Shown: positions 19,360 through 41,939 of the stretch, piece after piece
Numbering within the stretch: the first letter of the stretch is position 1
Layout of the letters: each line of letters starts with the position of its first letter
Origin: Blasia pusilla
Taxonomy: Eukaryota
DNA length: 64,000 bases
Reading direction: 5' to 3'
Assembly (NCBI GenBank): GCA_050084515.1
Contig: CM114271.1
Location: 29,078,001 to 29,142,000, forward strand
Translations under genes and position numbers: made by a program
The notes under the pieces: model-generated
The model's database searches: none
What the model was told of the DNA's origin: nothing
What the model saw: only the letters and a program-made list of their open reading frames with translations

Positions 19360-19789
19360 GTACCAATCGAGGTGCGGTAAGAGGAGAGGAAGAGAGGAAG
19401 AGAGGAGAGAGGAGAGAGGAAACTACCTTCAACCGAAATAGATACTTTTTTTGAAGAGAGTTTCCTATGATTTGAAGAGAGTTTCCGTTGGGTTGAAGAG
19501 AGGAAACTTTTTGTGTGAATTTTTTTGCACTTTTTTGCTCAGTTATTAGCAGTCCCACAGTTTTTTTTTCTCTTCCATATTTTGGCAACCCATCTGAGTC
19601 CGACTGGTTGCAAATTGCACAAAATTTACAAAACTGAAAAATCTGTGGAATCATAAGTGTGGAACCAATCACTTTTTCCATCCAAGGTCTGGAAACAATC
19701 TACCATTTGCCCTGGGCTGAATAGAGTTCAAGCTCAAAGTGAAGGTTCTTGAAAAATGAAAGTACAATCTAAAACCTCATTTTGCATCC

Positions 19790-22700
19790 TCAAAGTGGTT
19801 TGTTTAAAATACTTTGCACTTCTTTGAGGGACAGAATTGGTTGGTGGATTCCTACTCCTACCTCGGACTCTCTTAAAACTACCAGCAACACATAGTACAT
19901 GTGCTTACAAGGGAAATACCTTGTGCCACTTGTCTCTCTTTGGACAAAGTCATCACATGAACATGTGGGAAAGCAACAGATGTGCACCACAAACACCCCT
20001 GTGACACTGGAATTTACAGTGTTGTTCAAAAACCCAATACATCCTTCCTATTCTATTGCCACGCATGACATCTTTCGTGGCGATGATCTCCATTTTTTCC
20101 TCCCGAGCTGATGCAATTCGCTTTGCTCTCTCCACCGTTGGCCTACTCATTCTGTTTCTCTTCACCCCATTTCTAGGCTCAAACAGAAATAGTGGATTGA
20201 GATCATCCACCTTCTCCGGGTACATGTTGACATCAATCTTGGGTTGAATACGAAATACGAAGGTCTCTGTAATGCGAACATGCTCCGAACTTCCCCCGTC
20301 TACGAGTCTGAAACCGGAACTTGTAAGATTGTCCACTTCGTCTTGAGTGCAGTTCGTACCTGCGGCGATGGGCCAAATTGTGGGGGTATTCCCTAGAGCT
20401 CCAATGGCAGCCGGATAAGACTTCCGGAAAGCGCAAGATTCATTTGGGCAGAAGAAGTACTTCAATTGATCCCCGGTCCTTGTGAAACGATCAAAGGTCT
20501 TGAGTCCCCAAAACCCAGGCAGTGGTCGTCTAGTCCTTGTACAGTTCTTATTTAGGAAAGTGCCGCATGCTCTCCTAATGCCATCAGATCCTGCCCTGCA
20601 GGTGGATCCACGTCCTGGGTTGCTCCGAGATATATGCCACAGTTTTAGGTTGCAATCCACCTCCATTACCGGAATCCCATATTGTTGAACCACCCTAGTG
20701 ACCGGATGTTGCGAACTTCCAGCAACGGAGGGCTTTCGAAATAAGACATTCACTCATTTTGGAGAAGGGTCTCCATCACGGATTTGGGAGCGGTCCGGGG
20801 TCCCCGAATACATGGGCGGTGTAATTTCCTCATCCAAATCAATCATCGGATTTGTTCCTCGATGCTGCCTCTTCACCTGCGTGAAGTCAAGATACTTATC
20901 TGGTCTCCACGAGTCTCGCTCGGACTGCTCTACCACCATCTGTATGGGACGTCTTGAAACCCGCCCACGAATATCCCCACCAATGTGTACGTCTTGCTCG
21001 AGGGGAGTTCCAGCTACGCACCGGTTGAAGGCTTCTACATACAGTTTTTCATCACCAGATCTCACAGCCGCCCTGACATAGAGCTCGTAGATTGACGACC
21101 CCCTTCCTTTTGTTATGCCTTTTGTGAGGAAGATATGGGATGCTACCGACTATAGCATTGCTCTTTCCTGGTCTTATTGGCATGGCTCCACAAGTGAAAT
21201 TTGTTGGCATGCTTATGACGACCTCCAGGAGGAATGAACACTTTCTGCTCCACTTGTGTTGGGGCAGAGGGCATTTTCATGAATGTTCAATCCCTGCAAC
21301 GACAACAATGTTAGAAGGGAACGAAAATAGCTCAGGAGTCAAAGAAATAAGCTACATGTCGAAACCAGACGGGTTGCAAGGCCGAGGCATCCCATGAACG
21401 ACTCTGCGATCCGTCGGGTCCCGACGTGTTGCAACCCTAAATCCACCTACTACAACCCGTCGGATTCAGACGGGTTGCAAGAACCTTTGGCCACTCTGGA
21501 AGATCCAAGTGCAAGTCATCCGAAACCCATCCAGGTCGAACTATTTGCAGGCCTTGTATACATGCAACTTGCATACTTGTATACGGGTTGCACCAAAATT
21601 CTGGATGCAACCCGTCGGTTTCTGACGGGTTGCACACTCGGGCAACCCGTCGCATCCGACAGCTTCCTTGGTTTCTTCGGTTTGAAATCCCTATAGTTCC
21701 CACGCTTCTCAACTTGAGCTGCAACTTTACAAACAATTCTCAGCGTGAGCTTGACAAGACAAAATAGTGAACTCACTTGCCGCATGAAGTTTTCCCATTG
21801 TCTCATACGTCATGATCCCACTTAACTCAACCAAGAGCACAACTCTTTGTACTTCCCCTCAATCGCATGCTTCCTCCACCACCCATGAAGTTCTTCTTGG
21901 CATTCCATGGCCTGTTTCAAGGTTTTGCTGTCCTTGCAGCGTTGGAGTAGAGTGACATGCTCTGTCCTCTTATTCTCCTTGATGCAAGATTTGGTGTACC
22001 GGTCACAGACTGTTGCCAATGGAAAGCATCCGACCTTTCCCTCTCCGGTTGAACCTCTCCACCCCAGAACACTTCCCGGATAGCAATCCACCCAAGTTGT
22101 GCATTGTCCGCCATGAACCCATAAATTTCCGGAGGTGGCCTTTTGTTTTCCTTCACCACCTCCAATAAGAGTAACCAACACATCTTCAAACTGCCAACGT
22201 CTTCTGCTTTTACTTTACAGACAAATATAGTTTTGATTCCCTTCTCCACATGGTCATAAACGTGAGCACCCATTGTCAACCATCCGTTCAACACCCTAGA
22301 GCAAATATCAAAGCTTACCCAAGTTGCCGTAAGATCTTCCCCTTCTCTCATTCGATCTATAAGATCGAGGCCACTTGACGGACCTGTGGTTGACATTTTG
22401 AAGACATAGGCCCTGGATCCCTCGCCTCCTTGGCCCATGAACTACCATCTCTGAGTGAATGGAAATCTGGAGTTGGCCTTGATTCTGGCGATGGCATCCA
22501 TTTCGGCCGTCTTTCCATCCAGAACCCGTATTTGACGCAACAAATTCCGGAAGCATTCAGAATCAACGAGAAATGCGAGATTTTCCCAGAGTTGTTTCTC
22601 CTCAGCCGCCGTGATCTCGCCCTGTCCAGGGATTCCAAGAATTTTTTCACAAATTTGTGATGCTGTTGTGAGCTTGATCACTCCGGGCTTTGAACCCAGA

Positions 22701-23889
22701 GAGTTTGTGTAGACCTCGGCAACTTTTTTCGCCACATCCTCCTTGATGTGTCTCTGAATTGCATCGGTCACAGGATGAGTGTGGGAGCCAACATGAACTG
22801 CCAGCCTTGTGTATTCTGACGTGGAGCCCAAGTCGTGGAAAATGAAAAATATGTATGCAGGACATGCTCCAACGCAGAAGGGCGATGCCTGACAATGAGG
22901 ACATCGATGGCCTCCCGGCGGTATGGTGGCACAGACCTCGTATGGAGTTTCTGCATTCTTGGGGGGGAATTGCGACGTATTGACTCGCCCGTTGTGCTCT
23001 ACATACGGGCATGCTGGAATTCTACACTCCAAGGTTCCAACACATTGGCGGTGGGAGACAATCCAAGGACCATCTGGAATTGAAGCACTAGTCCGTTGAA
23101 GCACCATCGATGACAATCAGACTTTCTGTCCATACCCTTCAGGCATCCTCCATCTTTCTTTTGAGCAGGAGCAGCAAGTGGAGGCAACTCAAAAATGAAA
23201 TTACCATCGTATGTGGGCGGCAGCTCGTTGACAAGAATGTGCTTGAACATTTTCAAGGCCAGAGACGAAAGCAAACTATTTCCTGACTCACAAGAGGAAC
23301 GAGTAGGCGGACAGAGGGCACGGTTGGTGTCCGACAGATCCACTATTTTTGATAACATCCGGAATCTCTTCAGGAAGAACAACATTGTTACAAGCGTGTG
23401 AAGTTGGAGTCGCAACCGGATCTACTGAGCTAGGAGTTGCAAACGTAGAGCTCGGTGCACTAGGAAATTCTCGACTGTCTACTTGGGAAACAGACGAATT
23501 CAGGGGCAAGCCGTAAAATCTGTATTGACCATTTTCTAGAGGTAGGAGATTCCATACTTTACGGTCTGCAATCATACAGTACCGTCCACCTTAACATCCT
23601 TGGATACAAAGATGGTTCCAATTTGGAGAAGAAATCGAAAAGAGAGAAAATTTTCATCCACTGCTATGAAAGACTCAAGAGCTTGCGGTCGAACGATTTC
23701 TGATTGAGGAAGGGCCACTAGATGAGTGCCACAAGTGAGCTTCACATAATTATCCATTCCCAGAAGATTCCAACAGGAGGAGAATGAGAATGTTTTATTT
23801 ATAGTGAATAGGAACTCAGATTCTCCTGACAGAATTTGACTGACAAGATGAAGTTTGGTAGGTGAAATTTTCTGACACAATGGATTCAA
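19790..23889 (-). pseudogene. Mutator-family transposase (GCM/WRKY-like Zn domain, DDE core, C-terminal SWIM), disrupted
   Basis: Zn domain CVGTLECRIPACP...CPHC...CPA...HVGSHTHP (within 22442-23116); DDE-like WVSFD, GFMADNA, AFHWQQS, PNTSGAESVHSSW; SWIM CSC...CKH (19790-20029); GT-AG intron 21294-21776; in-frame TAG at 22442 and several frameshifts. Confidence 0.85.
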
Positions 23890-23972
23890 TTCTGTTGCAA
23901 CTTGTCAAATTCAGGTGGGTTACAGGATTTGGGAAGCAGAGATGTGGGTTGCGAAGCACACTTCATTTTGTT

Positions 23973-25962
23973 GGAACCCGTCGGAGTCCGTTGGGTTGGT
24001 ACCCCTTTCCTGCCGACCGAAGATCTTTTGAGGCGATTTTGGTAGCATCAAACACAAGATATCGCTTGTTTTTGCGGGATTATCCAACTCAGGGTACATC
24101 TTGTGACCCGTCGGATTGCAATGGGTTTCCTCGGAACAATACGTTGTCGCATTGTTTCTCGAGGGATAACCTATCGATAACCGACGGGTTGCCTTGGTTA
24201 CTCAACTATTAACCCAAGCTAAGCGAACCTTGCAGCCCGTCGGCTTCAGACGGGTTGCACGCTTTTGCCTAACCTTGTAACGCAAACATGAACGAAGCTG
24301 GCAACCCGTCGCTCTCCGACGAGTTGCGCGGGTACCGCGCTTTCTTGCCCAAAGACGGCGGAGGCGCGCAACCCGTCGGCATCAGACGGGTTGCCCTATT
24401 ATCTCACGGTGTTACACTTACATGAAGGAAGCGTGCAAACCGTCTGTTTCCGAAGAGTTCCGCGGGTGCCGCACCTTCTTGCCCAAAGACGGCGAGCCGT
24501 GCAACCCTTCGCCCTCAGACGGGTTGCGCAAGGGCCTCGCCTTGTTTCGCTTACATGAAGGAAGCGTGCAACCTGTCGACCTCCGACGAGTTGCGCGGGA
24601 AGCCCGCGTTGTTATCCCTTAACGAGGGAAGCGTGCAACCCAACGGTCTCCGACGGGTTGCGCGGGTACCTCCCTGTCGCGACCCTCATAACCAAACAAC
24701 ACCAAATATGCGCCAAGCGAAACATCAGAACTCAAAGGAACTCACGCCGCGAGGTTTGCGCTTTGGAGAGGCGTTTGGAAGAGTCTCTTGGAAAAGTCTA
24801 AGAGACGAAACGCGGAACAGAGTTGTGCGTTTCATGCGTTAGTGGTCGCGACCAGGAAACCTTGACCAAACGCAAGCCGAGACTTGAGATGAGTTGAGTC
24901 TTGGAGGTTGGTTGCCAAAGAGGTGAGAACCAGTTTGGAACACGGCTAGCGTTTGGGAGAATCTGACTGTGTTTAGGACCATAACGTTGAGCTCCGAATT
25001 GCGTTGGGGACAAGTAAGGGCGCGTTGGAAAGCTGATCTTGAGACGCTTCCAACGCACCAAAGATCTTAGCAAACGCATAAGTACAGACTGATATATTGG
25101 CCGAAAACGATTCAGAGAGCAATCGGGTTGAGGGCCAATTGGAGGGGCCCGGGTGTCTTTCCCTAAATGTAGGGGGCCCCCGGAGATCCCCAGAAGTACT
25201 AGAAAGGGGAGTACCTTCTCTGAGATGTCTCGGGAAATGAAACCCCACTTTGGGCGCCAAACGGCGTTTCAGAGGCACGGGATGAAACGGGAGTTTGGCG
25301 CGGAAACCCGAAACCCAAACCTGATCCAAGGGAGTGGACTTTGTACGCCACACTTGGATTCCAACCCGAGATTCACTTCGTGCGAGTCTTGGTGAGGAAC
25401 TCATTGGATGTTCATTGGACAGTTGGAACCGCTAGGCGCGAAACGCCGTTTCAGGTTCCTGAACCGACCAGAAAGTCTGTCCCAAGTTTTTCGAGACTTG
25501 CCCGTGTTGGAAACCGCAAAACTAGGAAGGTTGAGCTTGAAGAGAGAGTCCGAGACGAGAACTCGGAAAGTAATCCCGCTGATTGATCCAAGACCCGACT
25601 AACCGAAGTGCGTGTTTGGATGCAGATCAGCGTTGAGAGCGTGACCTACTGAACGCACGCTTCCGCAACAAACAAGATTAACGTTCAAGGAGAGTAGGCG
25701 CACGACACTCCCGTTCTTGTCCGAACACGGCGGAGGCGCGCAACCTGTCGGTCTCCAACGAGTTGCGCGGGTACCTCGCATTCTTGTCCGAAGACGGCGG
25801 AGGCGCTCGACCTGTCGGTCTCCGACGGGTTTCTCGCGCACCTTGCGTTCTCGTCCCAGGACGACGGAGGCGCGCAACCTGTCGGCCTCCAACGGGTTGC
25901 CACGAGGACGGCTGCCTTGAACCCTCGGGAAGCGTGCAACCCGTCGAAGCCGTCGGGTTGTT
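23973..25962. repeat. Tandem array (~67 bp period) of a 27-bp palindrome in the divergent promoter region, split by a solo LTR
   Basis: GCAACC-type starts at 24232, 24301, 24368, 24435, 24501, 24568, 24635, then 25740, ~25806, ~25874, 25936. Confidence 0.9.
24675..25707. mobile_element. Solo LTR (1033 bp) inserted in the MULE
   Basis: TGTCG...CGACA termini, 5-bp TSD CTCCC (24670-24674 and 25708-25712), homologous along its length to 39535-40537. Confidence 0.92.
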
Positions 25963-26050
25963 GTTTTTCACGTCCAGACTTCTGTAACGGCCGGCACGTC
26001 GCCGTCGGAAGGACGATGCGACCCAATGGTGAGCCCAACGGCTCGAAAAG

Positions 26051-26058
26051 TATAAATA
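26051..26058 (+). promoter_or_regulatory. TATA box of the MULE cargo gene
   Basis: TATAAATA about 310 bp upstream of ATG 26361, just after the palindrome array. Confidence 0.55.
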
Positions 26059-26157
26059 GGGGAGAAATCGCTCATTTCGGTTTTTCATTTTGCGATCTCC
26101 ATTGCTCTCCCGCGTAGCAGCTGACCTGATACCAAGGGGCGCTTTACACGGCGACCC

Positions 26158-26320
26158 ATCGCGAGACGATACAAGCAAACGATCGCGAGACGATTCGAGC
26201 GAACGATCGCGAGACGGTTTGACTGAACGATCGCGAGACGATTCGAGCTACCCATCAAGGAGACTCATCTCGACATCAGCAAGGCGACTCATCTCGACAT
26301 CAGCAAGGCGACTCATCAAG
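26158..26320 (+). repeat. Two short 24-bp tandem arrays in the cargo 5' UTR
   Basis: About 4x GAACGATCGCGAGACGATTCGAGC-like and about 3x AAGGCGACTCATCTCGACATCAGC. Confidence 0.85.
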
Positions 26321-26360
26321 CGATTCATCGTGCACATAGGTGGAGGCATTTCCGGGAAAA

Positions 26361-29300
26361 ATGACGAGGAAAAAATCTCAAGCAAACAAGGCTAGGAGCT
26401 TCACTCCCAAGTCCATGAGGACTCCTGCGTCACCATCTCCAGGGCCTCGTTTGGCCAATGAGATAAGGCAGCAAGAAATCGAGGAGCGGGAAAGGGAAGC
26501 GGAGATGCACAAGCAAGAGCTTCTTGCAAAATGTGTACAGGAGGCGCTCGATAAACAGAACGCAGAGGCTGAGGCGTCGCAGGCCTTGAAGAAAAGGGTC
26601 GCCGATGAAAAGCGAGAAAAGAAGCGTCTGGACGCGTCGGTGAGGAGAGCAGAATTGGCTAAAGCTTGGAGGGAAAAAGCAATAGCCATTGAAGAAAGCC
26701 CTGCCTGTCCAACCGAAAGTGTTGAGATGCGGGAAATGTCCCCGATGAAGTCCGGGGACACAATCAATATAGCGGAAACGGCCGAAGTTCAAGTCATGGA
26801 CGATGAGGTCATGAGGACCGCCAGCGTGGAGATGGTGGACATCGCTGAAGAAGCAGGAGAGCGGTCATCCTCGTCTTTAAGCCCGGCGGAAGAAATCGAC
26901 CTCTATCGGATCGACAAGTTTCCAGTGGACTTGCCAGCTGCTATCTCAGAGTAGTTGGCTGGCCAAGACACCGACCCAATCTTCGAGCGGGTAAGAGAGG
27001 ATCTGTGTTTTTTGAATTATGTGAAGGTCCATGTTGCAATTCATTGGCAATTCAGTGTAGCTTATTGATCTTGTCCCCGTTGTGATAGGTGGTAAAGCCT
27101 ATGGCACTGATGGAGGGCCACAACGCCCCAAGAATTCCACTCTGCCGATTGCGGACAATGGAGTACGTTCGCGAAATTGAGTCTGACGAGGATATTGCGA
27201 AGCTCAAACAATCGGCGGTGACAGCATCCTACGTCGACAGCTTCCCTTCGTTCTATGTTCAGCCTTACGATGACCATGGAACCCAAGCGCTGGTTACGGA
27301 GGAGGACTTGGAATCGCTCGACATATTCTGGAGGATGAGAGATCAGGAATTCAGAAGGCAAGTAGAGGGGACGGAATTCAGCTGGATGAGAAACATGTAT
27401 TTCTTCATCTGGGATGGAAATCACAGGTTCATGGCGTGGACAAAGTTTGCAGAGGAGCGCCCAAACTCCTTGGAGGCACATTTTTGCATGAAGGCAGTGG
27501 TGCTTCATCCAAACCCTCATCACATGGCAACGGTGGAGATGGCCATGCATGCCATGAACACGTAAGTTTCTTCTTGCTGCAAATCGTCGGACTCCGACAA
27601 GTTGTTTGAGTCGCCACTATTTTTGGGATGTTTTTGGCCAAAAGCAACTCGTCGGACTCCGACGAGTTGTTCGACTGACCACAGGTTTAGGATGTTTTTG
27701 GCCCAAAGCAACTCGTCGGAGTCCGACGAGTTGCTCGACTGGCCGCATTCTTTGGATGTATTTTGAAGAAAGCAACTTGTCGGAGTCCAACGAGTTGCTT
27801 GACTCGCCGCATTTTTTGGATGTTTTTTGAAGAAGGCAACTCGTGGGAGTCCGACGGGTTGCTTGACTCGAAGCTGTTTTTGGAGGTTTTTTGATGTTTT
27901 TGGCCGAAAGCAACTCGTCGGAGTCCGACAGGTTGCATTCGGAAGTTGGGAGCTACATTTTTGGCGTCAAATTGCAGCTTTCATTGAAATTGCGCAACCT
28001 GTCGAACTCCGACGGGTTGATATGTTCACTTTTGATACGGACTATCTAACAACCCGTCGGAGTCCGACGGGTTGAAACCAGGCAATCACAAATCTGAATG
28101 CAATCCGTCGGACTCCGATGGGTTGCAAAATTTAGCTTGTTGCTACAATCCGACCTTGAGCTGTAACGACTTGTCGGAGTCCGACGGGTTGCAAGAACCC
28201 ATGTACCTTACAAAATTTCTTATATTGAGTTTGGATGTGCAGGATTGTATCGGAGGGGAATGTCACCCACCACTGGACCCAGTATTGCGATCGGGTGAAG
28301 AAAGTGCTAACAACGCACCCGGCAGAGTACAAGGGGTTCTTGGGCGACTCCCTTGTAAATGAGATGCTGGCAAAGGGTGCATAAATCAAAAAGAAGACTT
28401 GGGCAAATAAATTTATTTCCCAAGATGCAGCCATCACAATCCTTTGCTGGTCGAAGATACAGGCCACCTAGAAGAGCGCTGCATTGGAGCTGGAGCGGAG
28501 GGAGAAAGTGCCTGTGTCTGAGCGTGCAAAATTCATCCAAGCTGCAGTATCTGCAGCTACGAAGTACACGGCAAGCAAGATGCAGCGCTACATCGCCATT
28601 CTCAACCCCAAACTTGGTCCGGATTTCTACAAGGAGCTGAAGGCGATAATCAAGCGCCAGCGGAAAAGGGATGAAGATCCGCAAGGTCGGATTGGGGAGA
28701 AAGTGTCTCTCGATCGCGTGCATCAATTTGCCTTGTCTGGAATAAGCGAATTTAGGAGAATATGACTCATGAAAATTAGTCTCGAGGGCACAGAGGCCCA
28801 AAAGAGGGCGGCACACCATCCTCCGGGTGTCTCTGATCCAGTGATCTCCCACTGGCTTCGGGTATGGTCTATCTGGGACGCGTTGTGGCTTATTGGGAAG
28901 TCCATGCTCGACGGTCTCCAAGCGGAGCTGAAAAGAATAGAGCCACTTCCAGAGGAAGAAAACCTGGAGAGTGCTGTAGATTTCAAACTTTGGCTTGATG
29001 ACATCCGGGACAAGCCCATCAAAAACCCAGGTTTCAGGACGATGTTCAAGGATTGCATCCTCCCTCAGGCAGACCTTGACGAAGAAATCAAGGGGAAAAA
29101 AAAGGATTTCGCAAAGAAGAAGCGAGATCTTCAAGAGCAGGCGGCCGATGTAGTTTGACTAAGAGCTACCCAACGTATGGTATTCAGGTACCTCGTCCAT
29201 TGTAAGAATGCAGGTACGTAGCGAAAAATACCGGCAGCCTGCAAATTGTGGGCTTCTCCGCCTGATGGAGAGACATTCTCCATGTACGACACGAAGATGG

Positions 29301-31090
29301 CTCAGAGCATGTCCGATTGGGAGGTGGAGAATTGCCCGATTTGGATGGACTTCAATGACCCTGAGGACATTACCGAGAAAGATCTACGCCTGCTTTATGA
29401 TGCAGTGGTCGTAGGACGGGACGACATCCCCAATTTTGTGGAGCCTAAAGACTTTTTCGAAGGAGATGCGGAAGAGCAAGCCCTCGAGACAACGGAGTTG
29501 GCTTCTAAGGTCCACACAACCAAAGACAAATCTACAGCGGGTCTCAAAGGCAAGGCGAGGGGATCGAAGAATTCCGAGGCCGAGTCTTCCCAAAGAGAGG
29601 CTGAAGATTCAAGGCCAGAGCTGGAATCGTCCAGGCGAGCGGGGAGAGAGGGTCCGACCAGGTCCTCCGCGAGAAAAACCCCACCAGAGTCTGAGGACAT
29701 AGAGACCCCAACAAGCCGACCGCAGACTCGAGAGAAGCGGAAGCGAGAGGCGCCAGGGTTGTCCCAAGGAGAATACAGTCCATCATCCTTGGGAAGACAT
29801 AGAGAAACAACGACCCGGACAAGCATCATCCTTCACTTCACGAATCTACTGGATGAGTTGAAAAGTTTCAGTTCTCAAGCGTCGACACCCGCCATCGAGA
29901 AATTGACAACGCTGGGACGGAAGCTTCAACGAAACGGGCAGGTCGGGCTCCCTTGACGGTCCATGGGGTGGTCGAAGAGGTGGCGGTGGATCTCTTGATC
30001 GCTGATTTGCCCTCGGGGTTGCGCTTGTGGGACTAGAATCCGTCCGACGGGGTCCCAGACTGGAATGTTCCCCTTTCTTATGACCAGATTGCGCTCCAGT
30101 TTTCCTTCGTAGACGCTTATCTCAGTGACAGGGGCTGCTTCTTAGTTTTAACTGGAGGGAACGAGGACGAGCTTTTCAACCTCCAGTGCGTCAAGAGGTC
30201 GCTGAAGTGGAGGACGGCGCAATCGTGGATCATCAAGAACGAGTACCCACTCCGATCCGCGACGAGTCAAATTCGGATAAGGCTCTATTCCTGTCTCCAG
30301 ATTGTATTTCTCCGACGGATTTTTTTTGTCCGTGAGCAACCCGTTGTTTTCCGACGGGTTGCATCTTTCCCAGAAACACAGGGAAAACGCATTACCACCT
30401 GCAACCCGTCGGGTTTCGACGGGTTGCAGGTGCTTATGCTTTTTCCCTGTGTTTTCCGGAAAGCTGCAACCCGTCGCCTTCCGACGGGTTGGTCATGGAC
30501 AAAAACAACCCGTTGGACTCCGACAGGTTGCTCCAATGTTAGTATTATAAAGAAGTTCTCTAGGGTTAAGCGAAGTTCTTTGGTGACGTGTTGCACATTA
30601 TGTCACCATCCTGAGAGTAGACCAGTGGCCAAGTTGCTGACATTGTTTCCTGCGTGCTTCTTTACAGATGGACCACTCCTATGTTTACTGCTTCGTTCGG
30701 ACCAAGCACAACTTCCAGGTGTTTAAGATCCAGGATCTTGTGGATCCATGCTCCGATGGGTACAACTTAGATAGTTTATACAATTCCCCCCCGGGAATTT
30801 TCATGCAAGAGGATACCCCACTACTTGGAGGAAGGGAAAAGTCGCCAGGCCTGATGCAAACGCTCATCGAGCTCTGCTTAAGGCCGGGTGACTTGGTGTT
30901 CGACTTAGTGGGCCTTTCACGCACGAGTATCAAAGGCGCCTGGCAGAGTGGTAGGAACATTCTCTGCCTCAAGGGAAGGAGGAACTGTTTGACCTTTGCA
31001 AGGAGGCAAAGGCAGATTATGACAGGCTAGTTGGGGCGTACAACTCTCCTCTGAAGCCGAGAGCTCCGGTCCAGACCCACCATTGGTAGT
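26361..31090 (+). pseudogene. MULE cargo gene: charged N-terminus, ParB/Sulfiredoxin-like domain, helical region and beta-class N4C/N6A DNA methyltransferase-like domain; disrupted
   Basis: Phase-consistent exons 26361-26990, 27089-27561, 28243-30276, 30668-~31090. ParB-like IPLCRL...VRE...DIAKLKQS...FFIWDGNHRFMAW. MTase-like VDLLIADLPSG (29986-30018), YLSDRGCFLV, EKSPGLMQTLIELCLRPGDLVFDLVG...GAWQSGRNILCL. In-frame stops at 26952, 28382, 28469, 28763, 29156, 29219, 30034. Confidence 0.75.
27579..28193. repeat. Intronic array (~64 bp period) of the 27-bp palindrome in cargo intron 2
   Basis: Copies at 27644, 27708 (perfect GCAACTCGTCGGAGTCCGACGAGTTGC), 27772, 27836, 27910, ~27994, 28050 (perfect CAACCCGTCGGAGTCCGACGGGTTG), 28100, ~28167. 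Confidence 0.92.
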
Positions 31091-31227
31091 GACACCATCG
31101 TCACTTCCCACGATTCTGAAAATCGGGAGGGCAAGGCCGAAAGTAATTTTGCAAGAGCTCTCGGATGATGACGAGTGAGTTCAAAGAACTCAAGGACCCA
31201 GCTTGACTGCAGCGTTTGGAGTAGGGA

Positions 31228-32326
31228 TTTATTTGATGACGAGGGCAAAAGAATTCATAGAATAGATGAAATGTACAGTTCCGAGCTTCTTTCGGATGTA
31301 ATAAAGGACAAGATTTTTTCGAAGGATCGTGGTGTTTCTAAAAGTTTGCTGAATATCTTTTGTGTCTTTTCGAATGTGATCGTCTATGTACTCCGAGGAC
31401 TTCTATTTTGCAACCTGTCGGATTTCCACTGCACCTTTTTAACCACTACCAAGCAACCTGTCGGATTCCGATAGGTTGGCTGCGTGAGTAATCGGACTCT
31501 TTCCCTGTTGGTCCAACTTAAGAGGCAGTCGGGCGGGCTTCTTCACTTTGGCACCTTCCCCTAGTATCGTCAAACAAGGCGTAGGCTTCTTCTCTTCTCT
31601 CAGACGTGTTGGATTCCTACTACCTGTGGGATTGCCATCATGGTATTTCCAAGGACGGAGCACATATTGATACTGGATGGGTGTCACATTACAGAGCGTA
31701 CAAGATATACCGCCGAGGAAGGCAGTGGGACTCAAATCAGGTTACATGGGACCGTTATGGTGTACCTAGGGGGGGGCCAAGGCTCTCGAATTCGCCAACA
31801 TTTTCGATCCCCGTCTACAATCGGCCAAAGGAGCCACTTGTATCCCAAGACATTCCTTTTGTACAGGAACCTAGGAGAGTTAGGAGTAAATTTGTAGATG
31901 ACGAGGCTGAAGAAATCATAGACTAGATCAAATGTACATTTCCGAGGTTCCTTCGGAGGTAATAAAGGACGAGATTTTTTCAACCGATAATGGTGTTTGT
32001 AAAAGTTTGCTGAAATTTTTTTGTACTTGTGGATTGTGTTCGTCTAGCTACTCAAAATGTTTATTTTGCAACCCGTGTGATTCTGACGGGTAGCAACTTT
32101 TCACTTTTTGACCACTGCAACTTTTCAACCATTTCTAAGCAAGCTGTCGGATTCCGACAGGTTGGCTGCTTGAGTGGTCGGACTCTTTCCCTGGTAGACC
32201 AAATTCTGAGGCATTGTGGCGGGCTTCTTCACTTTTGGCTCGTTCCCCTAGTATCGTCAAACCAGTCTTAGGCTTCTTTTCTTCTCTAAGACGTGCTGGA
32301 TTCCTATAACTTGTCGGATTGCCATT
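31228..32326 (+). repeat. Diverged direct duplication of ~400 bp (31228-31640 and 31890-32326)
   Basis: Shared blocks AATGTACAnTTCCGAG, GTAATAAAGGACnAGATTTTTTC, AAAAGTTTGCTGAA, TCGGACTCTTTCCCTG, GGCGGGCTTCTTCACTTT, CCCCTAGTATCGTCAAAC. Confidence 0.9.
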
Positions 32327-32971
32327 TCGGATTCCCAAACAGTTGAATTTTCGTGGGTGCAGGGTGGAATGGAATCACTTCTCAAAATCTTTCCTTTGTT
32401 ATGGTGAGCTTGCTTGCAAGGGATGCAAGCCATCTGATTCCGACAGGTTGCAAGAGTTGGAACCTGTAAAATTCCGACGGGTTGGGAGGGGTGTAGCATC
32501 TCGGTTTATCAGATTTAGGATCTGAATGAAGGGACATCAGTTTCTCTTTACTCTAGACAACTAAAAATCTTTTGGTTTAATTATCGTCTCCTGTGTTGAG
32601 ATGAGATTGCTACTCTGGTCACATTATTTGCCAATGGTCCTCCAAAAAAAATAGCCCTGGGCACAGCTTACTGTAGATTGAGACAGGAAATGTGAAAAAA
32701 CTTGGGCTCACATGGAGAGTGATGGAAAAATGTTTGTAGTGATCTTATGATGTCTACTTGTTTTTCGCCCCCTAGAAAAAGGAAGTTTCTTAAGGCCCGA
32801 ATGTGGACCACTACCTACTTTCTTCTAAAGATTTCATGAATTTGATAGCAAAGAAAAATTTCAAATATGTCAAAAAGTTTTGAAGAGAGGAGGCGGATTT
32901 GGCCCTTTTTTTTGAAGAGAGACTCTCCTCTCTTCCTCTCTCCTTGCAGAATACCAGCCCCCGTACCAATC

Positions 32972-34300: not shown

Positions 34301-35667
34301 GAAGTAAGAGGGATTATTTTTAAATGCTCGTGATATGGCTTTGTAAATAAAAAAAGAAGGGTCATTTAGTCATCTTAGCCCACAATTTGAAATTTTATGT
34401 GAAAATTTCAAATTTTCTTAAGTGACTTGCATGGGATTTTAATATATGGGCTTCTAATGAAAAGGTCAAATTTTATTTTTCATTCCAATGAAGAAGTTGT
34501 TAGTGAGATTAAATTTGGTCTACTTGTTCATGGAGGTTTGTGTAACATCCTTAAAACTTTCAATCTCTACACCCATATATATGATCAAGCATTTGATCTT
34601 TAAAACTCGATGGAGTAAGAGATATTCCATTTGAAGGAATCATGAAAATTTGGGGTATGAACTCAATATCTCTATTCTTTAGACCTTGTGAAAGCTTGCC
34701 CCAAATTTAGGTGGTACTAAATGATATACGCAAAGTAACGGATCTTCAAAATCGATAAGGAATGGGACCAACGGAAAAAAATATTTACAAAAAGTTTGAA
34801 AATGAAAATAATGAATATGTAGGTCAAACTTTATGAATTCATATGAAATATGAATGAATTTGATCATGAAAATCAAATTTAAAATGATAAGAAATCACCT
34901 AATACTTCAAGGACCTTCAAGGCTACAAACCTTTTCCGTTCCCTTTGGATTTGACATTGAATTTAGCTCTAAGAATTTTCCTTAAAGATCGATGTAGAGT
35001 TTTTGAATCTTCTAACTCCGGGCTAATATCATCATCAAATGAAATAATAAGTTTGAAAGAATAGATTGCCCCTTTATCCACTACTTGACAAGGTGTTTAT
35101 TCCCTTGTACGGACTTTTTGAGTAGAACTAGCTTCTATTGGATCAATGATTGTGAAGGGGTTTCTAAAATAAATTTTCTTATAGTATATTGTCCTTCTAA
35201 TCCACTTTCCCTAGCTCAGTTCTTCTCCATCCAATCATGTATTTTGTCTTGGGCATGTTGTTCCTCTTTGGTCAAACTCATGAGATAGTCATCAAGGTTG
35301 CACGGAAATGAACAAGTCTGGACATGTCCTCGGACATGGCCGGCCCGCACGCCATCCCGTCCCAGAGCCCTATGGAAAACTGCTAAACAAGCATAACTAA
35401 TGGAAAAGGACTCTCACACACACACACACACCACCATGGAGAACAAAATTGGTAATGAGAGAATGAATGGAGGCTAGTCCCCTTCTCAATTATATAGGGT
35501 ATGTACAAGGAATCCTAATCCTAACCTTAGTCTCGAGTTAGACTAATTGTGATTAACTAACCCTAGTTAAGATAATCGTGCTTAATTGACTAACCAAGAT
35601 TAAGCTTCCCTACTTCGTGTGAGTACCAAATGTAGCAGTTCAGGTGTCTCATGAGCTTGGTTGTAAC

Positions 35668-38600
35668 TCAATCTTCAATACTCCCCCTCAAGCTCATATC
35701 GATATCTCTAACGCCTAAATTATTTCTACACATCTCAAACTTATCTCTAAACAATACCTTTGTAAAGATGTCAGCAATTTGTTGATCTGTACCTTTATAC
35801 ACAAGATCATTTTCTCCTGCAAGCACTTTCTCTTTGATAAAATGATAGTGCATCTCAACATGCTTTGTACGAGCATGAAATACAAGGTTATTAGCAAGCT
35901 TGATGCTACTAATATTTTATGCATATATTACACTATGTCCTAAGTTACTAACACCAATCTCAACAAATAATCGATAAAGCCACACTGCCTCACATGGTGC
36001 ATTGGTTGCTCCTTTGTACTCAGCCTTTGTTGAAGATAAAGCAACTGTTGGTTGCTTCTTTGAAGCCCAACTTATAGCTACGCTTCCCAAAGTAAATGAA
36101 TAATCAGATGTGGAGTGTCGATCAGACACGCTTCCTGCCCAATCAGCATCTGTGAATCCGTGTAATTGAAAACTCGGAGAAGGTTCAAATTGAAGCCCGA
36201 ATTGAATAAAGAATTTCACATACCGCATAATCCTCCTCACAACATCAAGGTGAGGTTTTCGAGGTGCTTGCATAAATTGGCTCATTAGGCCAACACCATA
36301 ACTTAAATTTAGTCTGGTTATAGTTAGATAGATCAAACTTCCAACCATGCGCCTGTATATATTAGAATCTGCAAGCAACTCTCCTTCATCCACTCTTAGC
36401 TTTACACTCTGGTCCAACGGTGTAGAAATTGGATAACAAGCCGTCATACCATATTTTGAAAGCATATGAAGAGCACATTATCGTTGTAGTAACCACATGC
36501 TCTTTCCAACCTTGATAAACTCTATACCAAGGAAGTACTTGAGTTCTCCCAAGTCCTTCATATCAAATTCTGCTTGTAACTTAAGCTTGACTTGTTGTAC
36601 CATTTCTTCAGTACTCCCTGTAATCAGGAGATCGTCAACATACAACACATTGAGAACCGTATGATCTTGTCCTCTCAAGACATATAACGAGGAGTCAAAA
36701 TCACATGCCCTAAAACCCAACTCTTGTAGGACGTATGTAATCTTGCCATACCAAGCTCTTAGAGCTTGTTTGAGCCCGTATAGAGCTTTCTTCAACCTAC
36801 ATATACGAAATGGAAATTTGGGATGCTCGTATCCAAGTGGTTGAGTCATATATACCTCCTCGTATAGATCTCCATTCAAGAAGGTATTCTTGACGTCCAT
36901 GTGATGTAATCTCCACTTCTTACTTAATGCAACTGCAACCACTATTCTCGTAGTCGCCATCTTTGCAACAGGGCTAAATATTTCCTCATAATCGATACCA
37001 TATTGTTATGCATAGTCCTTAGCCACCAATCTCGCTTTATATCTGTTAATTGTACCATCTTGATTGCGCTTGATTTTATAACCCCATTTGCAACCAATAG
37101 CTTTCTTACCGGAAGGTAAATCAACATGCTCCAATGTTTGTTGATGTCTTAATATAGCAAGCTCTTCCTCCATAGCTTGAATCCATTCGACTTTACTTGC
37201 AGCTTCTTCAAAACAACTCGGCTCTTGTTCTTGAAGGGTAGTCATCATAGATGGATGATGTGTTGCAAGGAAACCTTTATTTATGAATCTATGAACTAGA
37301 TGTGTAACTCTACCTAGTCTACGAAGTTGTTGTTCAGAGGTAGATGCCTCTGACACCTAACTCAAGCTCTGACTAGTGTCAATAGAATGAATACGTACTC
37401 TTCTGGTCCATGGACTCACAGATCTAATTGATGAATTTAGAACCTCTCAAGACAACATCCCTACTCACATAGAATTGCCTAGAGGATGGAATTATAGCAC
37501 TTATACCCCTTAGTTCCATCAAGATAGCCAATGAAAATACATCTCTCTACTTTTGGATCTAATTTCTTTCTCTTTTCATCCGGAATATGAACATAGCAAA
37601 TACATCCAAAATACTTTCAAGAAGGAAAATCAAAATTGGTTTACTTTCCGGTGAGAACTTCGGATGGAGTTTTATCAAACTCATGCTATTGGAGTTTGGT
37701 TGATTAAAATACTTGCACATGCTACTACCTCTGCCCAATATGATTTTGGCATGTTCTTTTCATTTAGCATAGCTCGTGCAATTTCTGCAATATGTCTATT
37801 CTTTCTCTCTGCTACACCATTTTGTTGTGGAGTATAACTACATGTGATTTGTCTCTCGATGCCATTCTCTCTCAAAAACTCATCAAATTCATGAGAGAGA
37901 AATTCTCCTCCTCCATCAGATCTCAATTTAATATGTATTTACCTGATTGCTTTTCTACCATAGTCTTAAAGGTGTGAAACATAGAGAGGACTTCAGACTT
38001 ATGCTTCAAGAAGTATACCCATATCTTCCTTGAGAAATCATCAATAAATGACAAAGTACTCACTCCCACTAAGACTAGGTTGTGATGCAGTCCAAACATT
38101 TGTGTGGATGATTTCCAATATATTGGATGCTCGTGTACCTTGATGAGGAAAAGAAAATCTAGATTTTTTTCCAAATTGACATGCAGGACATACCTCTAAC
38201 GTAGTAGGATTTGTGAAACTTGGGGAGTCATATTACAAATTTAGATGATGAAAGACTGTAATCTTTGAAAGTTCATGTGTCCACATCTCTTATGCCATCA
38301 CATTTAGATGTGTGACTTGTTGGTCGTTTGACCATACATCCAAACATTGTTGTTTCTTTCTGTGGTAAAACAACATCGAGTTTGAACATTCTCCCTTCTC
38401 TACTTCCCTTGGCCACCAACTTCTTATTCGGCTCCATTGTTTCAATGAAACAACCATCTACGTTAAATTTCACTTGATAACCCTGTTCTACTATCTGTCC
38501 TACAGAGATCAGGTTTCTTGGAATGGTAGGAACATAGAGAACATTTCCAAGAGCACAAAGACCATCTATGCTATTGAGACTTTATCAAGATATCGTGATA

Positions 38601-39471
38601 TGATGTAAGGCTCTTGTTCTCATATTTTCCTTCTTCTTGAAGCAAAACTTTGCATAGTGATCCTTTATCCCACAGTAATTACAAGATCCAGGGACCCTCT
38701 GTTGCTGACCTCGACCCCAACGGTTTCCACCATCACCACCTTGTGATTGTGTGGTACTGGTTTGTAGTTGATTGTGTGACGTTATATTTAGTGCCTCTTC
38801 CTCCATATGCTTGATATCCTACATGACCACGGAAGCTTCTGCCACGACCCCTGCCTCTGTTTGATCCATAACCTGCAAATAGCGCACTCTCTTATAGACT
38901 AGACGAGCTATCGCTGCCTACTAGGCGCATCTCTTCACTGATTAACATAGGGACTAACTCTTGAAAGCTTTGGATACTTCTTTCTCATAGAGATAGAGGT
39001 CTTAAAGGACTTGTAATCCTTTGGAAGGCCTTGAAGTGAACAAAATCAGATGATCATCTTCTACTGTCATTCCAATGCTATTCAAGTGATCAACAATATA
39101 TCTGATACTCAAAATATAATCATTGATGCTCTGCGATACTTTTCTCACTTCGTTCAATTGCTGTTTCAATTGAAGCTTTTTGGCCTTTGTAGATGTTTGG
39201 AACAACTTTTCCAATGCATCCTAGGCCTCTTTTGGAATATCAACATATTGAATGTGATCGTTATTGAAATGTGGTGGATTACTTGCCTTGCGCATTTGTT
39301 CCAAGCGTGAACATTCAAGTCTGTTGAGTCATCTTCTGGCATGGTCTCATCACATGTGACAAGCTCCTATAGTTCTTGACCCATGAGAAATTGTTTTATG
39401 GGAAACTTCCAGACATTGTAATTCTGCTTATCTAGCTTCTTGCCTGTGATTGCCGTTGAGGAATACTCCAT
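35668..39471 (-). pseudogene. Copia gag-pol, frameshifted
   Basis: Gag CCHC (CNYCGIKDHYAKFC), integrase ([34 protein letters not shown]), RT (HHMDVKNTFLNG, LYGLKQA, LYVDDLLI), RNaseH (FTDADWAG, QIADIFTK). Confidence 0.95.
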
Positions 39472-39534
39472 GACGAACAATTTCACTCACAAAAATATAA
39501 TTTCAGGCTTTCTACTACTCCAATTGAAGCATAG

Positions 39535-40537
39535 TGTCGCGACCCTCATGACCAAACAAGTGCCAAGCGGAACATCGGAATATTAGCGGGCTCACGCTAA
39601 GATGGTTTGCGCGTTGGAGTTGTCTCAAAGAGGAGACAAGATACGAGACGCGAGCGAGGAGTCGCGTTTCAGGTGTTATGGTCACGACTGAGAAACCTGA
39701 ACCAAACGCGGAATGAGACTTGAAAGAAGTCGAGTCTAGGAAGTGGGTTGCCAAAGGAAAGATCCGGATTTGGAACGCCACTAGCGTTTGAGAGTTTCCG
39801 ACTGTATTTATGACCATAACTTTTAGTGACAAGATGCGTTTGGAGCAAATAAGGGTGCGTTGGAAATATTATGGAGAGTCGGTCCAAACGCACCAAAGAT
39901 CGCTGCAAACGCATAAGCAGCGGCCGAGATACAACCCAAAAACGATTGTAAGTGGAGTCGGGTTGAGGGCCACAATGAAGGGCCCGACCCTCTTTTCCCA
40001 AAGGGGAGGGGTTATTGGAGAACCCCAGAAGTACTAGTAAGGGGGAAGGTCTCCGAGAGTGCTTGGAACCCAAACCCCACTTTGGGCGCCGCGGGGCGGC
40101 TGAAAGGCATGGAACGGAACGCGAGTTTGGGGGTTGGGTTGGAAAACCTGCACCAAGTCCATTGAGGCGATTTTAGACATCCCTCTTGGATTCCACCCCG
40201 CGATTCAATTACTTGGGTCTCGGTTCGGAACTCACCCAAGGAGCGTTGAATAGTTGGGATCGCTAGGCGCGCAAGTGCCGTTTCAGATCCTTGGACTAAC
40301 TAGGAAGTCTGTTCCAAGTCTTGAAGGACTTGCCATGTTTTGGAAGCTAGGAACTAAGGAAGGTTGAGCTTGATGAGACGCCGAGTTGAGGACTCGGTGG
40401 GTTGGAACGCCGGTTGGCCCAAACCCGACTAACGAGAGTGCGTGTTTGGGTGCAGATCGGCGATGAGTTCGTGACCTACTGAACGCAAGCTTCCGCAATA
40501 CTAAAGATTGACGTTCAAGGAGAGTAGGGGCGCGACA
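39535..40537. mobile_element. Solo LTR (1003 bp) nested in the Copia 5' leader, same family as 24675-25707
   Basis: TGTCGCG...CGCGACA termini, 5-bp TSD CATAG (39530-39534 and 40538-40542). Confidence 0.92.
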
Positions 40538-41939
40538 CATAGACCACTCCTACACAGAAATTGACCTGAAATTTTCCAAAATTGATTAATTGTATGAAAG
40601 AACTAGTCAAAATTGGTGTGTAGAGAGCGAACTACACAACTTTTCTTTACTAATTGCACTTTCCTACACTGAAATTACTACTGTCGGAGCTCAGAATGTG
40701 AGAATCGAGCAATTTGGATGCATTGGAAAGCTCTCGACGAGCTCTACAAGACAGCTAGAACAAGGCTTTGGCATTGTTCTAGCCGCTATGGACCCAGATG
40801 GCTAAATCGACCAGGAAAGCCTTAATAAATGCCTCCAAAGTTTTATCACCATCAAAGCTCCATATGAAATGTGCATCCACTGAGCTCTGAAGAAAACTTC
40901 CTTCTCCCAAACTGAAATTGTGCCTTCTCTTGCCTCTCTTCTCTCCTCAAACACCAAGAATTTCAAGTGTTGTTCTCCTATCGCTCTAATACCATGTACA
41001 AAACTGCTCAACAAGCATAGCTGGTGGAAAACCGCTCTCACACATACGTACCACCATGGAGAAAAAAATTTGCAATTAAGAATGAGTGGAGGCTGGTCCC
41101 CTTCTCAATGTAGGGTATTTACAAGCAACCCTAACCCTAACCTTAGTCTCGAGTTAGACTAACTGTGATTAACTAACCCTAGTTAAGATAATCGCGCTTA
41201 ATTGGCTAACAAAGATTAAGCTTCCCTACTTCGTGTGAGTACCAAATGTAGCAATTCAGATGTCTCATGAGCTTGACTGTAACTCAATCTTCAATAAGCC
41301 CGTTCAGAGCCTATTACGTAGACCCAAACTAATAGAGCCCAGATCCATTGCGGGGCCCATGGCAGGCCCACAGGGCGGGCTTAGGCCTACATAGGGACCG
41401 CCATGCATGCCTACCACGGTGCCCGCAACGGTGCAGAATCTGTCAGACCCGGTCTATGCGGCGTGCTCTAGGTGGGCTTGGGTGAGGGCCGTGGGTACCT
41501 GAGCCCGCACGGGCATGTCCGTCCATATGCATAGGATAGACATAAGTCTATGGATATGGATATGTTCCCAAACATGAACTTTGTCCATGTGCAATCCTAC
41601 TAAGCCCGTAGTGGCCCGCGACTTGACTAAAATTATTATTCATCCTCACAAACTTCCTTCCCCAATATGTTATTTTCATCTTGAGACGACCATGCCTTAC
41701 CATTCTTAATGTTAGAATCCAAATTATCACATTCAAAATCTCCAGGTGGAAGAGGCTCGTTATCTTCAAAATCACCATCTTAAATCCGCTATGCCTTTTT
41801 TTTTCAATGATTGTTGTTTCAAGGATATTCTCCTTTAGTGGGTTCATTTGCCCCACTCTCCATTCCTGTTCTAAACTTCCCTTCCCATACTTCTCATCGT
41901 GACGCTTTCGTAACAACTCTTGTTGGCTTCTTGATCTAT

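Follow-up and report, generated by a model that had tools for sequence, protein, structure and literature searches.

In the brown alga Ectocarpus, the 21.5 kb transposon Sola1-1_Ec32 encodes, on the strand opposite its transposase, a 1,104-amino-acid (aa) accessory protein that combines a ParB-like domain with an N4/N6-type DNA methyltransferase, and its authors propose that the protein binds and modifies its own element (PMC12477816). That report also cites similar proteins for green and red algal transposons, for green algae via Iyer et al. 2011. In red-algal Plavaka elements, the accessory gene PAG3 joins an N-terminal ParB-like domain to a 2-oxoglutarate (2OG) oxygenase beside tandem inverted-repeat arrays; the ParB-like domain was only weakly detected (best HHpred match 7BNR_B, e-value 0.29 as reported), PAG2 combines a PF01555 DNA methylase with SET, and both genes are also found in Mutator, Zisupton and further elements (10.1101/2025.02.11.637652). 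In phages the ParB-CTPase fold is frequently joined to N6_N4 methylases, its commonest partner there; it binds CTP, ATP or GTP in diverse fusions, with sulfiredoxin (Srx) as its common eukaryotic form (PMC12704722). A helix-turn-helix of the ParB type has been found joined to Dam-like methylases in chlorophytes and chytrids (PMC4738411). Here we analyse a 64,000-nucleotide stretch of the Blasia pusilla genome (contig CM114271.1, positions 29,078,001 to 29,142,000; hereafter the window), in which an exon at 27089-27561 probably encodes the N-terminal ParB/Srx-fold domain of a ParB-like and methylase-like accessory protein carried by a DNA transposon.

The window family is a land-plant member of the kind already reported for brown, green and red algal transposons. 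The window gene is accordingly not new in kind, because accessory proteins with a ParB-like domain and a DNA methyltransferase have already been described from algal transposons; a preliminary description of the window, which had called such a domain unexpected in plant nuclear genes apart from sulfiredoxin, thus overstated its case (PMC12477816, 10.1101/2025.02.11.637652). Like the Sola1-1_Ec32 protein, the family places both domains in one protein of ~1,100 aa, encoded in the window on the strand opposite a transposase-like remnant within a large candidate DNA transposon, and, as in algal accessory systems, inverted-repeat (palindrome) arrays lie near the gene, the genes in the window being divergent. 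However, the superfamily is Sola1 there, whereas the lead here is Mutator-like element (MULE)-like, and the hosts are a brown alga in one case and Riccia sorocarpa and Blasia pusilla in the other. In addition, motif IV is atypical here and Pfam recognizes neither domain, and the two proteins are likened by description. PAG2 and PAG3 carry their domains in separate proteins, whereas those of the window family are fused.

Phage and prophage ParB-methylase fusions show the same pairing, with the ParB-fold domain N-terminal and on mobile elements, but they are prokaryotic, much shorter, recognized by PF02195 and PF01555 and equipped with canonical catalytic motifs; the plant family has, in contrast, an insert of ~600 aa between the domains, plus introns. 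Sulfiredoxin resembles the window domain in fold (Z 6.4 and 6.0 in the structure search below) and in the H-R pair of its motif (GGCHR versus DGNHR). It differs as a single-domain enzyme of ~100 aa whose motif holds the catalytic Cys; the window family has Asn (58/58) at the corresponding position and its conserved Cys in IPLCR. Our literature search, whose coverage left many journals and supplements outside, found no land-plant report of such accessory proteins and nothing on ParB with Mutator-like elements, liverworts or mosses.

The exon lies on the plus strand and comprises 157 stop-free codons plus 2 bases, bordered by AG at 27087-27088 and by GTAAGT from 27562; the stop of its own frame (TAA, 27563-27565) falls within this donor. 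The strings IPLCRL, VRE, DIAKLKQS and FFIWDGNHRFMAW, from which the preliminary description had recognized the domain, are all found in it, and its contrast with its neighbours was also correctly described, the next exon (from 28243) carrying six in-frame stops and a frame change. The open frame alone proves nothing, because 27 stop-to-stop open reading frames (ORFs) in the window reach at least 150 aa; it is the homologues that carry the case. Nor is the 157-codon run itself evidence of selection, because the adjoining exon has only ~1 stop per 110 codons and we estimate that such a run would arise by chance in ~1 in 4 cases.

Sequence comparison places the exon in a large family, not among chance patterns. 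Word-based searches returned three relatives with IPLCR and FFIWDGNH in common, and a profile of the exon and these relatives (four sequences), searched against 1.84 billion representative proteins, matched 762 at E<=1e-3, 343 at <=1e-10 and 55 at <=1e-30. The 762 members are cluster representatives at 50% identity, and exon-sized fragments form the majority of them. In a 58-sequence alignment of family members, L18, F88 and N111 are invariant. The motif DGNHR-x2-AW is conserved around N111 (58/58) at D109 (45/58, with E in a further 11), G110 (54/58), H112 (55/58), R113 (52/58) and W117 (57/58), and further conserved columns include P17 (56/58), L18 (58/58), C19 (57/58), R28 (53/58) and N157 (55/58).

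As modelled, the exon encodes a real domain of the ParB/sulfiredoxin-type (ParB-CTPase) fold. An AlphaFold2 model built from the 58-row alignment reached a predicted local distance difference test score (pLDDT) of 89.5 and a predicted template-modelling score (pTM) of 0.84. When it was compared with the PDB using Foldseek, the first 24 rows listed were all ParB, Noc, KorB, sulfiredoxin or PadC, and 29 of the 34 rows listed were of ParB/Srx type, counting SbnI and BrxU. VIA-align, a structure search independent of Foldseek, covered 48,161 chains, only 14 of which reached Z>=2, and the top 11 were all ParB/Srx-type: KorB (Z 7.0), PadC (6.9), Arabidopsis Srx (6.4), the pNOB8 ParB N-terminal domain (6.0), human Srx (6.0), free serine kinase (5.3), Atu1540 (5.0), SbnI (4.5), Spo0J (3.5), SspE (3.2) and BrxU (3.1), with 69-118 residues aligned at root-mean-square deviations of 2.4-4.5. 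The model places DGNHR between a strand (105-109) and a helix (111-122). GERRxRA in ParB, GGCHR in Srx and DGQHR in DndB occupy the same kind of strand-to-helix turn.

The exon is the front of a longer gene, which the preliminary description had not recognized. In tblastn searches with the long relatives P0056 and P0067, the window was colinear over 27089-27561, over 28244-~29911 in the same frame and over 29980-30249 in another frame; joining 27561 to 28243 across GT...AG preserves both the frame (codon split as AC and G) and the colinearity with homologues. Eight 'hypothetical proteins' from the liverwort Riccia sorocarpa make up the named relatives; this species has at least eight paralogues, several of them truncated. 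The window is colinear with these proteins from the ParB-like domain through the C-terminus, and its stretches 29965-30330 and 30668-31027 align with the Riccia C-termini as one domain. By these alignments, the exon represents the N-terminal domain of a predicted protein of ~1,000-1,250 aa with a conserved middle region. The gene model on the plus strand is as follows.

26361-26951, plus strand: putative first exon, encoding a low-complexity, charged N-terminal region, from the first ATG of ORF 26340-26954 (ORF only).
27089-27561, plus strand: ParB/Srx-fold exon (157 aa) with IPLCR, V-R28, DGNHR-x2-AW and terminal N157, placed by its AG/GTAAGT borders, its relatives and the model.
27562-28242, plus strand: intron with a 64-bp-period array of a 27-bp palindrome, 18 half-sites at 27579-28192.
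28243-30276, plus strand: long exon, broken, with the middle region and the first half of the methylase-like domain (VDLLIADLPSG ... DRGCFLVLTGG); 3' end approximate.
30277-30667, plus strand: last intron, its borders placed approximately; it contains 9 half-sites of the palindrome and an inverted repeat of 101 nt at 30311-30517.
30668-31030, plus strand: last exon, with the second half of the methylase-like domain (REKSPGLMQTLIELCLRPGDLVFDLVGLSRTS...GR) and a degraded motif for binding S-adenosylmethionine (SAM).

The Riccia homologues have a similar low-complexity N-terminus ahead of the ParB-like domain; Pfam returned no family for the putative first exon, and no canonical in-frame donor was identified between it and the next exon. 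Pfam likewise returned no family for the region after the ParB-like domain in 10 long relatives; canonical partition ParB proteins have a helix-turn-helix that binds DNA, dimerize through a C-terminal domain and work with a ParA partner. One of the Riccia proteins, the full-length P0154 (1,244 aa), contains both domains. It is named 'Trimethylguanosine synthase' in one source, presumably automatically from its methyltransferase-like end, a name that has no support here.

The C-terminal domain resembles, in sequence, the beta-class N6/N4 amino-methyltransferases of the CcrM and M1.HpyAVI type, with an atypical catalytic motif. A D-x-P-x-G segment is followed by DRGC(L/F)(I/L)(I/V)L and then by GDIVIDFAGGWGAT (GDLVFDLVGLSRTS in the window), to which the last exon aligns in the Riccia proteins; a related match occurs in two metagenome contigs (L003 and L004) that show the same domain order, ~3 kb apart. 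The D-x-P-x-G segment lies ~170 residues ahead of GDIVIDFAGGWG, that is, motif IV before motif I, the order of the beta class. Pfam N6_N4_Mtase (PF01555) gave sub-threshold matches to three of the seven Riccia proteins (E 4.8e-4, 7.8e-4 and 0.048) and to the last exon of the window (E 0.046, profile positions 165-206 of 221, below cut-off), and NCBIfam 'DNA methyltransferase' models scored 14.8-15.7 bits. Searched against PDB sequences, a profile of the domain gave M1.HpyAVI/DpnA (0.0018 and 0.0022) and CcrM (0.045) as the best three of 8 matches. Foldseek on the low-confidence model of the domain listed, in order, CcrM (1e-6), M1.HpyAVI, M.BceJIV, rotifer N4CMT, type III Mod and MboIIA, the top rows having E from 1e-6 to 3e-4 and TM values of only ~0.35 on this poor model. 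Among the 11 family proteins examined that reach 600 aa, six combine the two domains, as counted with a methylase hidden Markov model built from the same proteins, and the N-terminal domain is full in four of these six (P0067, P0101, P0154 and P0159).

The ParB-like gene lies in a candidate DNA transposon of ~13.6 kb (19369-32962), where it faces away (~26361-31030, plus strand) from a MULE-like transposase remnant (23900-19953, minus strand). Besides the gene, the element has the following parts.

19369-19410, no strand assigned: candidate left terminal inverted repeat, GA-rich, preceded by the 9-bp direct repeat GTACCAATC at 19360-19368.
19953-23900, minus strand: transposase-like remnant with ORFs 22442-23116, 21917-22441, 20754-21149 and 19953-20753; contains stops.
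23970-25961, no strand assigned: central region between the divergent genes, with 67-bp-period arrays and 24 half-sites, split by a nested repeat at 24800-25708.
32920-32962, no strand assigned: candidate right terminal inverted repeat, with GTACCAATC directly after it at 32963-32971.

The palindrome is confined to the element. Its half-site CCGACGGGTTGC occurs 71 times in the window with at most 2 mismatches, against 1.85 expected, and 70 of the 71 fall within 19585-32485. Twenty-six half-site pairs form the 27-bp palindrome GCAACCCGTCGG-nnn-CCGACGGGTTGC, whose arms hold 1.53 bits per position (a value inflated by the selection of arms) against 0.18 bits in the flanks. Arrays with a 64-67-bp period occupy the two introns of the gene, the intergenic centre, an intron-like stretch of the other gene (21366-21653, 8 half-sites) and positions near both ends. 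ORF 21920-22441 of the remnant has language-model look-alikes in clusters partly annotated PF10551 MULE (score 0.95, with 170 features in common; in the nearest clusters 12-15% of members carry MULE), which we treat as a lead only. Mutator-like elements have terminal inverted repeats and a target duplication of 9-11 bp. The transposon setting given by the preliminary description is backed by the confinement of the palindromes, the MULE lead and the candidate ends with their 9-bp repeat. A CACTA/En-Spm identity, prompted by a CCGAC-type subterminal motif, was dropped for want of any support and because the transposase lead points to MULE.

Short palindromes are also denser in six related metagenome contigs (L001-L004, L011 and L012) than in the non-element part of the window, at 2.5-3.6 versus 0.77 per kb, uncorrected for base composition. 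L011 and L012 share perfect palindromes of their own, unlike that of the window: GGGGTACCTTTGG..CCAAAGGTACCCC at 1451-1478 and 5965-5992, respectively, and GGGACTCCCA..TGGGAGTCCC at 866-891 and 5381-5402.

In intact copies, the ParB-like domain may bind a nucleoside triphosphate (NTP) via R28, DGNHR and N157. The protein would recognize the 27-bp palindromes of its own element and bring the methylase-like domain to element DNA, either marking it or simply occupying it, with a possible influence on the silencing or transposition of the element. This combination of NTP binding, palindrome recognition and methylase-like domain delivery is put forward tentatively, as a proposal somewhat less likely than not to hold. 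A bolder version, in which intact land-plant members act as NTP-gated clamps on their own palindromes and write or block N6-methyladenine (6mA) or N4-methylcytosine (4mC) across the element as a self-marking epigenetic device, is speculative and rather improbable. On the same speculative reading, prokaryote-type amino-methyltransferases such as the liverwort sperm 4mC enzymes might have reached plant genomes in part through accessory genes of this sort.

Several results weigh against the assignment to a transposon-borne ParB-like and methylase-like protein, and we consider them together with the explanations that they favour. The catalytic motif IV of beta-class enzymes is (D/S)PP(Y/F/W). The family instead has D-[LMV]-P-[STF]-G (DLPSG, DMPSG, DLPTG and, in P0101, DVPFG, with D, P and G conserved at 90% or more across 11 aligned rows) and so no second proline-aromatic pair, which makes methylase catalysis doubtful. 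The SAM motif of the Riccia copies is FAGGWG, not FxGSG, and the PF01555 cut-off of 26.7 bits was never reached (P0158 20.6, P0154 19.9, the window exon 14.1, P0159 14.0); the model of the C-terminal domain is also poor (pLDDT 48.5, pTM 0.54). The motif and profile features suit a catalytically dead methylase fold in a protein that binds element DNA without methylating it and serves in anti-silencing, copy-number control or as a transposition helper, its ParB-like domain acting as an NTP switch or even a nuclease; the binding of ATP or GTP as well as CTP by this fold in diverse fusions is compatible with such roles (PMC12704722). On the other side, the methylase segments keep their order and spacing relative to M1.HpyAVI over ~160 profile positions, G-x-G is retained in the Riccia copies and the algal counterparts are annotated as N4/N6 methyltransferases (PMC12477816). 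We regard a dead methylase fold as unlikely on balance, although it is the alternative that survives best. A link to Marchantia DN4MT1 was considered separately and dropped, being kept as a long shot: the TSPPY motif of 4mC enzymes is present in that protein and not in the window family (10.1101/2021.02.12.428880).

The fold of the N-terminal domain has no backing from ParB or Srx sequence profiles. The PF02195 (ParB N-terminal) profile matched neither the exon at E<=10 nor any of the 58 family members at E<=1, a Pfam search of the exon (E<=10) returned DUF1015 alone (E 0.072), and NCBIfam gave no match for the domain. A sequence search of PDB chains with the exon found no match and no ParB, and one with the 58-sequence profile found eL24 only (E 0.035, taken as chance) and again no ParB; PADLOC returned 0 families for the exon and 3 scattered ones among the 58 members. 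The structural scores are themselves modest: Foldseek gave no match at E<=1e-3 (best row 6sdk_A, E 1.3e-2, TM 0.43), and VIA-align carries its own warning that Z near 7 is often reached by unrelated or unmatched models. The case for the fold therefore rests on the exclusivity of the hit lists, not on their scores. The preliminary description had expected a ParB/Srx profile or structural match, and of these the structural match was found and the sequence-profile match was not. The likeness might accordingly reflect a generic small alpha/beta arrangement, with DGNHR unrelated to the ParB nucleotide pocket. This is very improbable, given that the lists of two search methods are almost wholly ParB/Srx-type and that the only recurring weak Pfam matches across the 58 members, DndB (3/58) and DUF1015 (3/58), all sub-threshold and with no other family more than twice, are treated as ParB-CTPase-fold fusions or relatives (PMC12704722). 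Language-model neighbours of the exon, leads only, take in clusters annotated in part with ParB_N (11% of members) and with DUF6551, and the methylase-like partner domain is of the type with which this fold is most commonly combined in phages (PMC12704722).

The element boundaries are candidates only, because 1019 of 20000 randomly paired 120-bp stretches of the window share a 9-mer by chance (~5%); the terminal inverted repeats (~40 nt) are GA-rich and imperfect, the ORFs of the transposase remnant match no Pfam family at E<=5 (PF10551 MULE included), and no single dense palindrome array was found in the related metagenome contigs. That the gene is instead a host or domesticated gene beside transposon debris, an option favoured by these candidate ends, a transposase identity that is a lead and the lack of a second copy in the window, is very improbable and the least credible of the alternatives, since 70 of 71 half-sites spread across the introns of this gene, the intron-like stretch of the other, the intergenic region and the flanks and not elsewhere in the window, the copy is a pseudogene, and the Riccia paralogues, several truncated, and reads 90-95% alike indicate multiple copies.

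The window copy of the accessory gene is itself a dead relic. Its long exon is interrupted by in-frame stops at 28382, 28469, 28763, 29156, 29219 and 30034, its reading frame shifts between 29911 and 29980, the expected donor at 30277 reads ATAAGG instead of GTAAGG, and the SAM motif is degraded. Even within the clean exon, near-invariant residues are changed: F43 to A (F 54/58), W77 to L (W 54/58) and G47 to S (G 49/58). The stop-free state of 27089-27561 is likely to be luck. That the copy is a pseudogene is a further result beyond the preliminary description.

Transcription adds little support. Three raw-read RNA runs with the same species label gave 119, 205 and 122 reads counted at >=90% likeness; only 2 of the 446 were at >=99%, with 95 at 95-99% and 349 at 90-95%. 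Depth on the ParB-like exon was at most ~1.5, and no spliced joints at the predicted introns were listed in the three runs. As the reads are sparse, mostly 90-95% alike and without a joint at the predicted introns, they provide no evidence of splicing or expression for the window copy; its relatives show low-level transcription at most. None of the records listed as carrying the stretch is registered as RNA. RNA and DNA reads 90-95% alike indicate that further copies exist. Over the palindrome-array intron, at 27629-28171, RNA reads pile up to a depth of 38 in one run; these carry fixed differences together with numerous loose ends, which would fit related arrays lying inside other transcripts.

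The ParB-CTPase fold outside sulfiredoxin is, to our knowledge, thought rare in eukaryotes. The present family is large (762 representatives) and reaches a land plant, Riccia sorocarpa, and it matches a protein to a candidate 27-bp binding site in a way that lends itself to testing. The window copy itself offers no function for study. A Pfam-based survey such as that of PMC12704722 would miss the family, because neither domain reaches the Pfam cut-off.

Among the remaining repeats, two 24-nt tandem families of three copies each lie at 26151-26324, just upstream of the putative gene start. An unclassified repeat of ~0.9 kb occurs at 24800-25708 and 39638-40538 (73% identity), and Pfam returned no family for its ORFs. 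Elsewhere in the window, a host-gene ORF at 1771-3075 (plus strand) matches Mediator subunit MED14 (Pfam E 3.3e-35), the sole Pfam match among ten large window ORFs. Long plus-strand ORFs continue to ~17404, and those at 4241-6679, 7117-8331 and 10010-10957, which match no Pfam family, may be later exons of the MED14 gene. A Ty1/copia-type long terminal repeat retrotransposon with broken ORFs occupies 35376-41296 (minus strand), contains the second copy of the ~0.9 kb repeat, has matches to RVT_2 (E 3.6e-53) and Pol_BBD and is bounded by direct repeats at 35376-35680 and 41000-41296 that are 88% identical.

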